From a virus (taxonomy: Duplodnaviria; Heunggongvirae; Uroviricota; Caudoviricetes), in the IMG/VR virus record IMGVR_UViG_2534681938_000031: a stretch of 10,931 bases of DNA. The stretch is one strand, 5' to 3'. The position numbers were made by a program. Positions 1-6,000 of the stretch are shown in pieces. The number at the start of each line of letters is the position of its first letter. The first letter of the stretch is position 1.

Positions 1-3000
1 ATGAGCAGAGCACTTAACAAACTGAGCGATACACAGCTGAGGAAAATCAACGGCACACCCGCCCAAAAAACAGCCTTTCTTAATGACGGTGGAAACCTGA
101 GCGTCAGGCATTCAACCAGTGGCCTTTTAACCTGGTATTTCACTTACAGGGCCGGAACGGGAAGGGGGGCACCACCGGAACGCATTAAGCTGGGAAATTA
201 TCCTGATCTGAGCCTGAAATCAGCCAGGGAAAAAGCCGCCCAGTGTCGCGCATGGCTGGCAGAGGGGAAAAATCCACGTCATGAGCTTAATTACACCGTA
301 CAGGAAGCGTTAAAGCCGGTAACGGTTGGCGATGCGCTCACCTACTGGCTTGAGTCGTACGCAAAGGAAAACCGCGTGGATTATGCCGCCCTGAAAAAGC
401 GCCTTAATAATCACGTAATACAGCACATTGGTGCTATGCCGCTGGATAAATGCGAGCTACGGCACTGGCTGGCCTGTTTTGACCAGGTGGCAAAGCGAAC
501 GCCTGTTACTGCCGGATTCTTGCTACAGACGTGCAAACAGGCGCTTAAGTTCTGCCGGAGGCGGCGCTATGCAATCAGCAACGTTCTTGATGATATGAGT
601 GTGGCGGACGTTGGGAAAAAACCGGATATAAGCGAGCGTGTCTTAAGCACCAAAGAACTGGGCGAATTATTGCAGGCACTGGACAAAAAAATATTCTCCC
701 CCTACTACATCGCGTTAATCCGCCTCCTGATTGTGTTCGGATGCCGGACGGTAGAACTGAGGTTATCGGAGATCAGCGAGTGGGATTTTACCGAAATGCT
801 CTGGACCGTTCCGAAGGAGCACAGCAAAACGAAGGTAGCCATATTCCGGCCTATACCGGAAGCAATACTGCCGTTCATCACGCAGCTGGTGGAGCAGAAC
901 AGGCACACGGGCTTATTGCTGGGGGAAGTGAAACAGGAGGCCAGCGTATCGCAGTATGGAAGATTAGCGCACAGGAGGCTTAATCACCCTCACTGGTCAC
1001 TGCATGACATCCGGCGCACCTTTACAACCATGCTGAACGATTTAGGCGTTGATCCGCATGTCGTGGAGCAGCTTACAGGCCACCAGATGCCAGGAATGCA
1101 GCGAGTTTATAATCATTCCCGTTATCTGGATGCGAAACGCAATGCGCTGGATATGTGGACGGAGCGGTTAGGGATACTGGCGGGAACACATGAAAACGTA
1201 ACCACGCTACCAGTAGCCAGAAGAAAATAATTTTTTTCGTGTTTTTTCAGTATGCGCATACTGGATATGCGAACAGATACAACGTGCAACAATGAGCAAC
1301 AATGTGGAACAACTACGAACAAGAGGCGAAAAAGCGTACGGATTTATAAGTAGCTGATTTTTAATGTGTTACTGGTTTTTTATACACTAGCGAATCACTC
1401 TTTAAAGAGCGAGAAAAAAGGCATGGAACAATATTTTATGCCTTTGTATTAACATGAATTTAAAAGATTTTATTCTTACTTTTTCATTTTCTGTAAATCA
1501 TACATCCTCAGTATTTGCCATTCATCACTCTAGCGGGAACAATACGACACAATAAGACACCTGATGACTCTTTAAGAAACGAAAGGGGGCAATAGTGTTA
1601 AGCACTGATCGGTTTATACGTGAAAAAGAATGCGAAAAACTAACCGGCCTTAGCCGTACGTGTCGCTACCGCCTGGAAAAGGCCGGACAATTCCCATCAC
1701 GTCGTAAACTTGGCGGTCGTTCCGTTGGCTGGTCTTTATCCGAGGTTCTGGCCTGGAAGGATAGCTGCAAGGCAGTTCATTAATCACGCTGGCGGCACAC
1801 AGCCGCCACACATCAATCATCTGAACACAGAGCTATAACCATGAAGATTGAATATACGCCAGAACGTGGGCGGGGATTCGTTCGCCCTGGTGAGACTGGA
1901 AAACCACAAAATTGGGGTTTTTCAGGCATAAAAAAAGCGGCCCCGAAATGGAGCCGCCTTTCTGAACAGATAACCCGCTGCGCCTTATGTGTATATGATC
2001 CCAAACATAAGCACGGGGATGATAGCCGCTATCAGGCTGGTGGGCAATGCTATCAGTCTGGTTCAGTTCGTTGCCATACCTGCAATGGGCGCGTTTCCCT
2101 GTACTCTTTAAGGAATTGCTCAAGGGCAAAAGCACATGGCGCGAATCTTTCTGATTCATGCTCTATCTTTCTGCGCCGTCTTTTCCGTGCCGGTGATAAT
2201 GTTTTGGTCAATTCTTTATCGGTCATTGTGTTGTCCTGCATAGCAATGCGCCGTAATACCTCACACCACGGCGCTGATAGTTTTTATCCTTTGGGTTCTA
2301 TGCCGCGTTGCTGTAATTCTTTGCGGAGAACGCGTTTAATCCAAGTGGCTAAAGATGTGTCGCCATCGGCCTTAGCAGCTTCTTCTAGCTGCGCTCTGAA
2401 GTCTTCCGGTAATCGCATTTGGTATGGAGGCGAACGTTTTTCTAATGGTGTTGACATGGTAATTACCCTTTATTGCTATACCTACATGGTAATTACCATT
2501 GTACTTGCCATTACACAAAAATCAACGCCCCGCAGTGCTGGGAACACATACGGGGCGTCTAACCAACAACGTAAACTAGGAGCCGTTATGGTTGCCGTAA
2601 ATCATATACCACACCTTGTACACACACAAACGGCCTTTGTGTGGCGTTTTCTGGCACTGAGTGCCGGAGAATCTCAAATCATCCACGTAACCGCCTGGAC
2701 GGAACGCGAAGCGCGTAACCGTTGCCCGTCCGGTTGTGTTGCTGTATTTGCCGCCCGTATTCGTCAGGAGGTGCGCCATGATTAATCTGTCACTTACTGA
2801 CCTTAACCGCATTCAGTTTCGTGAGAAATTCACAGGGCAGCTACTGGTCAATGTGGATAAAGGTCGCGTGGTGTGTAATTACCACTTACCAGATGAAGCA
2901 ATTGTCGCCACAAGGGAATCATTACAGGAAATCACAAAACGTGCCGGAATGATTAACACGAATATTCAGGGGATGCTTTATGCACAATAAAACCACACCG

Positions 3001-6000
3001 GACGCAGCCGCCGAAGCCATCAAAACGCTGATGCACGCGCTGATTGATATTTCTGTTATCGCGGACAGGGCACATAAGCACGCCACCAGCGAAACAGAAT
3101 ATGCCGGTGCTTTCGTTCCTCACTCACTGGCTGTCATGCAATTTAGTGCTGATACGGCGCTGAATGAGGCCAAAGCTATCCTGATTGCTGATTGTGAAAA
3201 TGGGGGGGTTATGCGTGATGATCGTTTTAATTCCCTGAAACAGGAATTTTCCGGCGTTCCTGATGATGCGGCTGATGCGCTTTCGTCAATGCCAGAACTT
3301 ATTAGAGCGGCTTTTTTCTTACTTTCCACGAGAGAATATAAATCAACGGGGCTTGATGTACTGAATATCGCCGCCGATTATGCGGAATATGTGGCAGAGG
3401 CGCGTTATAGAAGAAAATTTCCTGAGGATGTAAGCCATGCGTGATATTTACCACCAAACAATAGACCGCGCATTTCTTGCACTTTCTCACAGTGAAAACA
3501 TGATGGAAATATTGCGCATATGGCTTGAAACACTTGGCGACAATGAACGCGACAAACAAAAATCAAGAATTGCCACGGCATTAATAACGCTTCTTGAGCC
3601 TGTAATAATGGAACTGCAAGAAATAGATCTATTGCACGACAGATATAAAGAACAGCACACCGGAGAATAAAAATAATGAAACTTAAATATTCTGGCTTAA
3701 CTGCCAGTGGCAACACTCACCCTAAATTTACGCGCGGTGATATTTACCGCGACCAGTACGGCGGCACGGTAATGATTAAGGGCGTGGAAGAACGGCGCGT
3801 AACCTACCGCCGTGAAGGTTACGAATATGATTGCGTGATGCCTGTTTATCAGTTCCGGCGTGATTTTTCTCTGGTACAGACCGCGCCGCATAACGTGCCC
3901 ACCAGCAACGCCAGGGCACGGGCAAACATCCAGAAGCTGAAAACCATGGTTAACGGATTCAGGGGCAAGAAATGAAAAGCGCACCGAACTTAAAAAAACA
4001 GCCTTACGACAAGATGACCGAAGTCATTATTTTTGCGGGTAGTGATGCCTGGGCACATGCGAAACAGTGGCAGGAACAGGACGGGCGACTGGCTGGCGAT
4101 AATGTGCCTCCCGTTGTGCTGGCTGATGATCAACTGGATGAACTGGCAGAACTGAGAATCATCGACGAGGGGCGCTATTGTGTCCGGCTGTACAAGGCAG
4201 GCCACATCAGGCCATCAAATATTAATGCCATTGCGCACAAGCTGGCGGCGGCGGGTGTAACTGATGCGAATTATTACCCCGAAGGGATGCACAGCCATAT
4301 GCGGGAGAACTGGCGCGAATACCTGGAACGGGTGCGCGGGAAAGAGCCGGCGGAAGAAAAAACCACCAGCGAAAAACCACGCTACCGATGAGCGTTGGAT
4401 CTACCGGATACGACACGCAACTGGATTACGTGGTTAAGGGGATTATTCCGGCGGTATCGCTATGCAGCATATACGGGGCTAGCGGGTCCTATAAATCATT
4501 CCTTGCCGGATCGTGGGCGTGCCATGTTGCCACTGGTCGCCAGTGGGGAGGCCGCAGGGTTGCACATGGTGCGGTTCTCTATGTGGTTGGTGAAGGCGGT
4601 ATAGGTGTTCCGCGTCGTGTAAAAGCCTGGGAGGTTGTGCACGATGAGCAGGTGAAAAATCTGTATCTGGTAAACCGCCCCATCTTTCCGGCTGCCCCGC
4701 TTGATGTTGATGAAATGGTTATCGCTGCCCGTCAGGTGGAGCGGGAAACGGGTAAACCTGTACGCATGATTATTCTGGATACGCTGGCGCGTTGCTTTGG
4801 TGGGAATGATGAAAATGATTCCCGTGATATGGGGGCGTTTATCCGTGGTTGTGACGAACTGAAACGACGCACAGGGGCCACGGTGCTGGTGGTTCACCAT
4901 TCCGGCAAGGATGAGACGAAAGGCGCGCGCGGTTCCAGTGCATTTCGTGCTTCGCTGGATGCTGAATACCGGATACGCAGGGAGGACGCAGGAAGCGAAG
5001 CGCTGGTTATCTCATGCACCAAAATGAAGGACGCGGAGGAACTCAAAGAAGCCGCATATGACTTACGCGTGGTGGAGCTTTTTACCGACGCTGACGGTGA
5101 ATTAATCACGTCGCTGGTGGTGGTGGATGATCCGCGCCCTCCTGTTGAACTGGAGCGCATCGAGGAGGCAGGGAACAAGACGGAAAACCATACCGCGCTA
5201 TGGGGGTGCATCCGTTCACGCACACAGAACGGCGACAAGTGCACGATCCCGCTGTTACGTGATGACATGAAAAAGCTGGGGTATGAAATGAAAAACTTCC
5301 GGCGCTGGCTGTACAAGCTGGAAAAAGATGGGGTTATTCGTATCGATGGGGATGATGTAGCGCCGCTATAAAAGTGAGGAGCAAAAGCGAGGGGGATAGA
5401 AAGAGGGCCAAAATTAGCCCGCTCTCCCTCACTTTTCGACCTGTATACATCCTCAAAAGTGAGGGGTAAAAAAATACTTATGAAACACACACATAGAAAA
5501 ACCGAAAATCCCAACTGCGACGAAGTGAGACGCTTGAAAAAGTGAGGCGAAAAAGTGAGAGGTTGCGAGAAATGACCCAAAAACGCAGAGACAGAACAGA
5601 GCCAAAATATAAAGCGTTAGACATGACTGAGCACACCTTAAAGGTGGCAATCAGAACGATAGACCGCCACACGCGGGAAGGATACGCGAAGGAACATCCC
5701 GACCTGATAAGCGCATTCATGACCACGGCGGCGGCAAACTTTGCCACGCTGACAGAACGGGAGATTGCCGAAGCGGAACAGGTAACAACCATCAACGTTA
5801 AAACCGGAGAGGTGGAATTATGACGGCACAGATAGCCGCTTACGGGCGGCTGGTGGACGACCCGCAGGTAAAACAGACCAGCAAGGGCACACCGATGACG
5901 CTGGCGCGTATGGCGGTATCTTTGCCATGCAGCCAGGCACAGGACGGACAGGCGACGTTATGGTTATCGGTCATCGCATTTGGCAAACAGGCCGGCTTCC

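Follow-up and report, generated by a model that had tools for sequence, protein, structure and literature searches.

A phage-inducible chromosomal island of Escherichia coli whose probable early operon carries an RgdR-family gene and a split replicase gene

The phage-inducible chromosomal islands (PICIs) of Escherichia coli, the closest described relatives of the element considered here, share its organisation: a pri-rep-ori module constitutes the replicon, AlpA activates the downstream genes and four pri-rep alleles have been distinguished (Fillol-Salom et al. 2018, PMC6092414). Helper-phage induction, replication and high-frequency transfer have been demonstrated only for EcCICFT073 and EcCIEDL933 (PMC6092414; bioRxiv 10.1101/2022.09.08.507074), the latter island being the same as O-island 51, CP-933C or Sp7 (PMC3378721; bioRxiv 10.1101/2022.09.08.507074), and the regulator RgdR is present in all E. 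coli PICIs analysed (PMC6092414; bioRxiv 10.1101/2022.09.08.507074). Here we examine the 10,931 nucleotides (nt) of virus record IMGVR_UViG_2534681938_000031, hereafter the window, with emphasis on five consecutive open reading frames (ORF1 to ORF5) and the helicase gene that follows them. A previous reading from sequence alone (the sequence-only reading) had taken these ORFs as five translationally coupled genes of unknown function. Our results are mostly a correction of this view, in that the supposedly unknown set very probably belongs to the early operon of a PICI and includes an orthologue of a published virulence regulator together with a frameshifted replicase gene. Only two points are of wider interest, namely an undescribed N-terminal domain of the replicase and a fold prediction for RgdR.

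The island and its early operon

The kind of element is already known, and the window is a further E. coli phage satellite of the PICI type at the roxA-phoQ site of O157-type strains. The 2.9-kb stretch from the Icd-like gene through the helicase gene has matches in hundreds of complete E. coli genomes and shows 100% identity, save for one base, to many O157:H7 chromosomes; furthermore, the draft contig AIFK01000013.1 is identical to the window over 10,391 nt. In strain TR01 the island, of about 11 kb, lies between roxA (ycfD) and phoQ and encodes, in order, an integrase, an AlpA-type helix-turn-helix protein, an Icd-like protein, three hypothetical proteins, a DUF4222 protein, a RepA-family helicase, another hypothetical protein, an SSB (single-strand DNA-binding protein), PerC, a lambda-E-type capsid protein, a gpD-type decoration protein and a Nu1-type small terminase (TerS). 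The same site is occupied, with the same layout, in CFT073 by the classical PICI EcCICFT073 and in another O157:H7 strain by a capsid-forming island of the EcCIEDL933 type. The gene map also displays the features by which Gram-negative PICIs are recognised (Fillol-Salom 2018), namely int, alpA and a rightward operon in which an iteron origin comes after pri-rep, within about 10-15 kb devoid of tail or lysis genes. We consider it very probable that positions 2588-5562 represent the early/replication operon, read rightwards, of an EcCICFT073/EcCI042-type PICI from E. coli. The earlier proposal of a satellite early operon ending in a replication gene is borne out by the island layout and gene order. 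The features of this region are as follows:

2588..2785, plus strand: Icd-like gene, first of the rightward operon (NCBIfam NF033153 phage_ICD_like, E 5e-18; annotated in TR01 by the Prokaryotic Genome Annotation Pipeline, PGAP)
2778..2990, plus strand: ORF1, 70 amino acids (aa), phrog_340
2980..3444, plus strand: ORF2, 154 aa, acidic (isoelectric point, pI, 5.0)
3202..3208, plus strand: poly-G tract, seven residues (G7) in the window (DNA alignment)
3437..3670, plus strand: ORF3, 77 aa, acidic (pI 5.1), phrog_2196
3676..3975, plus strand: ORF4, 99 aa, basic (pI 10.2), RgdR family (DUF4222)
3972..4391, plus strand: ORF5, N-terminal domain (aa 1 to about 125) and linker of the replicase, ended early by a frameshift
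4357..4362, plus strand: poly-A tract, site of the frameshift, A6 in the window versus A7 in the intact gene (TR01 alignment, probe statistics)
4388..5371, plus strand: RepA-family (AAA_25) helicase portion, its ATG at 4388 corresponding to Met140 of the intact 466-aa protein (PF13481, E 1.6e-43)

The junctions between consecutive genes are:

Icd-like/ORF1: 8-nt overlap
ORF1/ORF2: 11-nt overlap
ORF2/ORF3: 8-nt overlap
ORF3 to ORF4: 5-nt gap
ORF4/ORF5: 4-nt overlap, ATGA
ORF5/helicase portion: 4-nt overlap, ATGA

All five ORFs are present on the plus strand as originally listed; the Icd-like gene (2588-2785) precedes them and the ORF at 4388-5371, which had been termed an ATPase gene, follows, with no interruption in this same-strand series. 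The tight packing that had been described is confirmed, with overlaps at five junctions and a short gap at ORF3/ORF4. As for plausible ribosome-binding sites, that of ORF1 (AGGAGGT) is strong, ORF3 and ORF4 have only weak 4-mers, ORF2 and ORF5 only the purine-rich CAGGGG, and no Shine-Dalgarno match was detected ahead of the ATPase ATG at 4388. Full-length PHROG matches were obtained for ORF1 (phrog_340, E 1e-23), ORF2 (phrog_2512, 3e-92), ORF3 (phrog_2196, 1e-42) and ORF4 (phrog_285, 1e-32), and ratios of nonsynonymous to synonymous substitution (dN/dS) against orthologues in other islands were 0.18 for ORF3, 0.24-0.33 for ORF4 and 0.19-0.26 for the ORF5 domain; those of ORF2 are less clear (0.54 and 0.83, with few changes). 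These matches and ratios imply real coding sequences, and the possibility of spurious, non-coding ORFs was rejected on this basis. The label of five unknown genes stands for ORF1-3, which have no Pfam or NCBIfam match, and falls for ORF4, an RgdR/DUF4222 orthologue, and ORF5, the N-terminus of the helicase; overall, the sequence-only reading is confirmed in part as to its observation and supported in part as to its interpretation.

The replicase gene and its N-terminal domain

In TR01 a single 466-aa coding sequence, annotated as 'helicase RepA family protein', spans both ORF5 and the ATPase ORF. One extra A in TR01 (A7) is the sole difference and restores the frame; in the window the reading frame is not intact, as A6 shifts it to a stop at 4389-4391, and the last nine codons of ORF5 do not keep the frame of the intact gene. 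Of the 465 positions of the profile phrog_2850, ORF5 matches 1-125 and the ATPase 136-465, and the helicase portion additionally shows a weak match to RSF1010 RepA (1g8y). The 139-aa product, once viewed as an acidic partner or loader of the ATPase, is the helicase's own N-terminal domain, cut off by a 1-nt deletion in the poly-A run, and with a computed pI of 6.5 it is not notably acidic. A helicase loader of the DnaC or lambda P type was rejected, with no loader match in Pfam, NCBIfam or PHROG and ORF5 being part of the helicase gene elsewhere.

The distribution of the two alleles was examined with an 81-nt probe across the A-tract in 5,426 complete genomes, of which 373 gave identities of 95-99%. 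Each of the 39 listed matches that span the whole probe is 98.8% identical with one gap, which means that these genomes carry the extra A. Among the best-ranked matches in these genomes no full-length 100% (A6) match stands above the A7 matches, and the records at >=99%, five in number, thus seem to be partial matches, as is the one listed. The exact 139-aa product is encoded on 24 contigs from draft or read-derived assemblies, in many of which the integrase, capsid, ORF2 or ATPase gene is also broken. Based on the probe results and the many A6 contigs with other broken genes, we propose that the split is most likely a homopolymer miscall of draft assembly, or else a rare real allele. Weighing against a miscall, at least two otherwise clean assemblies (L006, L008) carry A6, which suggests that the split may be real in some strains.

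Were the split both real and functional, the replicase would work as two polypeptides, a free 139-aa Toprim-like protein and a 327-aa helicase made through ATGA coupling, much like the partner of the ATPase suggested by the sequence-only reading, and the A6/A7 and G7/G8 tracts would serve as slippage-prone switches. Such a device would accord with the location of the frameshift in the inter-domain linker, nine codons upstream of the next in-frame ATG (4388), which overlaps the new stop as ATGA, with the modularity of an N-terminal domain that is joined to four helicase classes, with the recurrence of the identical 139-aa product on 24 contigs, two of them otherwise clean, and with the second homopolymer (G7/G8), which switches ORF2 between fused and split forms. 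We nevertheless regard it as highly unlikely, as about 370 complete genomes match at 98.8% (A7) with no full-length A6 match outranking them, the ATG at 4388 lacks a Shine-Dalgarno sequence, the window is identical to a draft contig, and the further frameshifts of many A6 contigs, in the integrase, capsid, ORF2 and ATPase genes, are of the kind typically left by sequencing errors in homopolymers. An enzyme in two pieces is conceivable but lacks support, and ORF5 should not be counted as a gene by annotation pipelines and scans.

Residues 1-122 of the N-terminal domain share 67% identity with the N-terminal part of an EcCIEDL933-type island's DUF927 replicase and 62% with that of the D5_N/SF3 'P4-family primase' of CFT073. 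An exhaustive HMMER search of 1.84 billion representative proteins recovered only 95 clusters with this domain, and in the long members it is situated N-terminal to DUF927, D5_N/DUF5906/Pox_D5, AAA_25 or VapE-like cores, i.e. to four helicase classes; a wider contig scan, which used exact peptide patterns, returned 3 loci. No Pfam or NCBIfam family was matched by ORF5 or by 22 diverse members, and no PDB sequence was matched by the single sequence or by two profiles. The AlphaFold model is confident (predicted local distance difference test, pLDDT, 88.7; predicted template modelling score, pTM, 0.84). The Foldseek comparison that had been suggested as a check yielded nothing significant against the PDB, the best structural matches being, at modest scores, the Toprim regions of DnaG-type primases. 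Primase domains also occupy the same N-terminal position in relatives of the ATPase core (phrog_906, 3228, 239, 2597). A Toprim derivation of the domain is on balance probable.

The alignment of the domain displays the motif E-h-h-I-h-(A/V/I)-G-x-x-A-W and the invariant residues A4, P5, G23, A26, P47, L55 and G77. Where Toprim has its catalytic Glu, all members aligned have Ala, Val or Ile, the register with DnaG having been judged by eye and not from a structural alignment. There is no DxD motif or conserved acidic cluster in this alignment, the DxD position reading 'LADDQ' in the window and 'LGEQQ' or 'LGPKQ' in relatives. On these grounds the predicted fold is read as Toprim-like but catalytically degenerate. 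The opposite possibility, that it is an active if unconventional primase and the replicase a true 'pri-rep', as the literature names it, might draw on the structural matches to DnaG-type Toprim regions, on its location where related helicase fusions have primase domains, and on the fact that the island encodes no other primase, as the sequence-only reading had correctly noted for canonical primases. It might also draw on the ability of EcCICFT073 pri-rep-ori to replicate a plasmid on its own (PMC6092414); that test, however, used a dnaG+ host. Given also the replaced Glu in the by-eye motif comparison, the missing DxD and acidic cluster, the lack of a zinc-binding domain and a length of 125 aa, far below that of any DnaG RNA-polymerase domain, we consider an active primase very improbable. 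The degenerate Toprim-like reading concerns an undescribed domain common to the PICI 'pri-rep' proteins of four helicase classes, and its dead-Toprim appearance raises the question of who primes PICI replication.

The small genes upstream of the replicase

The sequence-only reading recognised no family for ORF4, which matches Pfam DUF4222 (PF13973) with a score of 85.7 bits, where the gathering cut-off is 27 (E 1.6e-24, all 53 profile positions covered). Judged by its alignments, ORF4 is an orthologue of RgdR (ECs1581), the regulator of motility and of the type III secretion system of the LEE (locus of enterocyte effacement). Along all 99 aa and without gaps it is 81% identical to the PGAP-named rgdR product of strain 380-94, from an EcCIEDL933-type island, and 93% identical to C1493 of CFT073, and it retains the RGD motif (R20-G21-D22) and K35. 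Expression of ECs1581 or C1493 activates type III secretion (LEE1) and represses motility, the activity of RgdR depends on residue 20 of the RGD motif and on K35, and the protein binds DNA weakly and non-specifically (PMC3378721). The AlphaFold model of ORF4, obtained from a shallow alignment, has a pLDDT of 76 overall and near 90 for core residues 20-66, and comprises a small five-stranded barrel followed by a basic C-terminal helix. As small barrels match many families at this level, the predicted Tudor/SH3-like barrel is a lead and not a classification; a predicted barrel with a basic helix would fit the published picture of a low-specificity DNA-binding cofactor. By sequence, none of ORF1-4 has a significant relative of solved structure in the PDB.

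The DUF4222 gene overlaps the start of the replicase gene by 4 nt in five of the six loci examined, and in 27 of 30 sampled genomes it overlaps a replication gene whose class varies. This ATGA coupling of the ORF4-family gene is kept whatever helicase class follows. Together with the predicted barrel, it suggests RNA polymerase beta or the replicase N-terminal domain as candidate partners of RgdR.

By their profile matches, ORF1-3 represent conserved, satellite-specific PHROG families, with no match in Pfam, NCBIfam, PADLOC or PDB sequences. ORF1 shares 64% identity with residues 1-59 of a protein of 121 aa from the island of strain C3, and no homologue was found in the CFT073 or EcCIEDL933-type islands. 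ORF2 is an in-frame fusion of two modules, ORF2N (aa 1-76) and ORF2C, which spans aa 78-154 and has a separate ATG at 3211; the whole is covered by phrog_2512, and the halves by phrog_5146 (N-terminal) and phrog_24341 (C-terminal). Its halves are 51% and 90% identical to two separate, overlapping ORFs of CFT073, and DNA alignment shows that the poly-G tract is G8 in CFT073 and Shigella flexneri, resulting in two overlapping ORFs of about 75 aa and not the 154-aa fusion. In C3 the counterpart of ORF2C is a separate 77-aa ORF, 100% identical to ORF2 residues 78-154, and the 121-aa ORF1 homologue sits between the homologues of the two ORF2 halves (L018 4279-5087), an arrangement which implies that these small genes are shuffled as independent modules. 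Among 495 ORF2 homologues the 154-aa form predominates; the 120 listed are from E. coli or unnamed sources and mostly 154-155 aa long. ORF3 is 87% identical to its CFT073 counterpart, 97% to that of C3 and 26% (E 6e-7) to an EcCIEDL933-type ORF, and in each of the three Escherichia islands compared it immediately precedes the DUF4222 gene. In the C3 island many junctions are of the form H-A-stop overlapping ATG-C-x-T-G-A.

The mosaic, shuffled arrangement of ORF1-3 would fit accessory roles or roles in host or helper interaction. This raises the possibility that they, and perhaps ORF4, are factors for manipulating the helper phage or host (by interference, derepression or anti-defence), like P4 epsilon and psu or the interference genes of Staphylococcus aureus pathogenicity islands, rather than replication accessories. 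Consistent with this, ORF1-3 are small (ORF2 and ORF3 also acidic) and satellite-specific without matches in phage genomes (for ORF1 and ORF3, tblastn against 50,697 phage records was empty, which also left a phage origin of these two unsupported); their gene content is shuffled between islands as that of arms-race genes would be, and their position parallels that in the P4 cI-epsilon-orf151-orf106-alpha operon. However, in blastp of all window products against all P4 products nothing fell below E 0.04 (epsilon, orf151 and orf106 included), and the profile of the replicase N-terminal domain did not match P4 alpha, leaving the derepression analogy with epsilon, which had been drawn earlier, without sequence support. 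ORF1-3 also lack matches in the domain, defence and structure databases named above, PADLOC defence models having given no match at E <= 0.01 for the 10 products tested, and the interference function of EcCICFT073 (Rpp) maps downstream of the replicon (PMC6739421). We regard such a manipulation role as possible but rather unlikely.

Flanking signals, a proposed mechanism and comparison with known systems

The operon is flanked by further elements:

1595-1783: alpA
2284..2457, minus strand: 57-aa Arc-like ribbon-helix-helix gene, divergent from the operon, a candidate local repressor (phrog_228 'Arc-like repressor', E 1.5e-6)
2454..2500, between the ribbon-helix-helix gene and the Icd-like gene: two palindromic boxes ACATGGTAATTACC, 30 nt apart, putative operators
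5370..5562, directly 3' of the helicase gene: putative replication origin, with AAAGTGAG iterons grouped in two sets that flank an A+T-rich stretch (about 5466-5510)

The motif AAAGTGAG occurs in 5 exact copies, on both strands and within 190 nt, against 0.31 expected, and none of 200 shuffles reached 5; variants add further copies. This layout agrees with that of E. coli PICI origins, in which iterons form two sets around an A+T-rich stretch (PMC6092414). The ACATGGTAATTACC boxes, inferred to be operators, lie at the 5' end of the Arc-like gene, whose product matches Pfam Arc weakly (E 0.038). PGAP does not call this gene in TR01 and gives an 'Icd-like' pseudogene on the opposite strand instead, and some gene callers report a 314-aa ORF (1841-2785) in place of alpA and the Arc-like gene. 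We rejected this ORF, in the Icd-like frame, as a likely artefact, which overlaps the Arc-like gene and a second small minus-strand gene.

By analogy with EcCICFT073 and from the literature, a helper phage would switch on alpA (1595-1783), and AlpA would activate the downstream operon to give, in order, the Icd-like protein, ORF1, ORF2 (the two-module fusion) and ORF3, the basic RgdR-family ORF4 and the replicase. The latter would normally be one 466-aa polypeptide with a degenerate Toprim-like domain of about 125 aa, a RepA/AAA_25 hexameric-helicase core and a C-terminal tail, and may act at the AAAGTGAG iterons 3' of its own gene, with priming by host DnaG. In the window the A7 to A6 deletion of 1 nt in the inter-domain linker would have converted it into ORFs of 139 and 327 aa. 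ORF4 may be a small cofactor that binds DNA or polymerase, is produced in concert with the replicase and assists either the replicase itself or the transcription machinery. This scheme reaches beyond the gene content, fusions and splits, orthologies, repeats and fold-level resemblances directly observed here, and three points weigh against it: AlpA control, iteron binding and DnaG dependence are carried over from EcCICFT073 and general replicon logic; nothing found here points to a role for ORF1-3; and the DUF4222-replicase pairing is not universal, a different gene lying upstream in a Tenebrionibacter locus.

A bolder extension would join the N-terminal domain with the RgdR-family protein as the two parts of a conserved adaptor in PICI replicons, in which a Toprim-derived, non-catalytic module, attached to four unrelated helicase classes, would work with a translationally coupled Tudor-like partner, the latter linking the replicase with RNA polymerase or with replication proteins of the host. 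We consider this improbable; if true, the effects of RgdR on the LEE, motility and curli would be a side-effect of host-machinery binding and not dedicated virulence regulation.

Downstream of the replicon, an 83-aa protein is encoded at 5573-5823, and the SSB gene is succeeded, as it is in other PICIs of E. coli, by a gene for a PerC-family regulator (PF06069, 6241-6513). The packaging module (7320-9897) comprises genes for a major capsid protein of the lambda gpE type (PF03864), a decoration protein of the gpD type (PF02924) and a small terminase of the Nu1 type (PF07471), and its annotation lists no portal, protease or large terminase. A 76-nt inverted repeat, with arms at 9179-9254 and 10043-10118 that are 91% complementary, lies on both sides of the Nu1-type terS (9355-9897), and read-derived contigs end at it. 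The repeat arm contains GGGCGGCGACCTCGCGGATTTTCGCTATTTATGA, which we take to be closely like the left end (cos) of phage lambda; on this likeness the island would have two cos sequences of the lambda kind, oppositely oriented. A 96-aa ORF at the right end of the window (10596-10886, minus strand) resembles in translation the C-terminal part of an IS3-family transposase. Rfam at gathering thresholds detected no RNA element in the window.

One of the systems compared is the left operon of satellite phage P4 (orf88/vis, cI, epsilon, orf151, orf106, alpha), where, as in the window, several small ORFs separate an AlpA-like gene from the replicase gene that follows it, and origin repeats are close by. 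The window ORFs have no homology to P4 proteins, and the N-terminal domain profile finds no match in P4 alpha. At the level of domain architecture, the replicase resembles T7 gp4 and Twinkle in having a domain N-terminal to a replicative helicase, and human Twinkle, too, has a primase-like N-terminal domain that is regarded as lacking catalytic activity. Unlike the Toprim of DnaG-type primases and Twinkle, to which no sequence-level relationship was detected, the window domain is devoid of the catalytic Glu, the DxD motif and a zinc finger, spans only about 125 aa, and is joined alike to SF3, MCM-like/DUF927, VapE and RepA cores.

ORF4 and RgdR (ECs1581; Flockhart et al. 2012, PMC3378721) are both 99 aa long and nearly identical in core residues 20-68, and both genes are ATGA-coupled to a replicase gene in an island at the same chromosomal site. 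They are 81% identical overall, the differences including A10, T19 and R45 in ORF4 for D, M and H in RgdR and divergence of the C-terminus. Their islands are also distinct, that of RgdR having an HK97-type capsid module and a DUF927 replicase, and that of the window a lambda-like capsid and a RepA replicase.

The classical Gram-negative PICIs EcCICFT073 and EcCI042 are also among the closest systems. The window differs from CFT073 in its RepA/AAA_25 replicase core, which in CFT073 is that of a D5_N/SF3 'P4-family primase', in the presence of ORF1, absent from CFT073, and in the fusion of ORF2, split in CFT073; the frameshift of the replicase sets the window sequence apart from both islands. 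It shares with them the gene order int, alpA, Icd-like gene, small ORFs, DUF4222 gene, replicase gene, small ORF, and genes for SSB, PerC, lambda-E-like capsid and gpD-like decoration proteins, and with CFT073 also the roxA-phoQ attachment region and protein identities of 87% (ORF3), 93% (ORF4) and 97% (SSB). In E. coli 042, ORF4 recurs at 99.7% and there too adjoins a RepA-family helicase gene.

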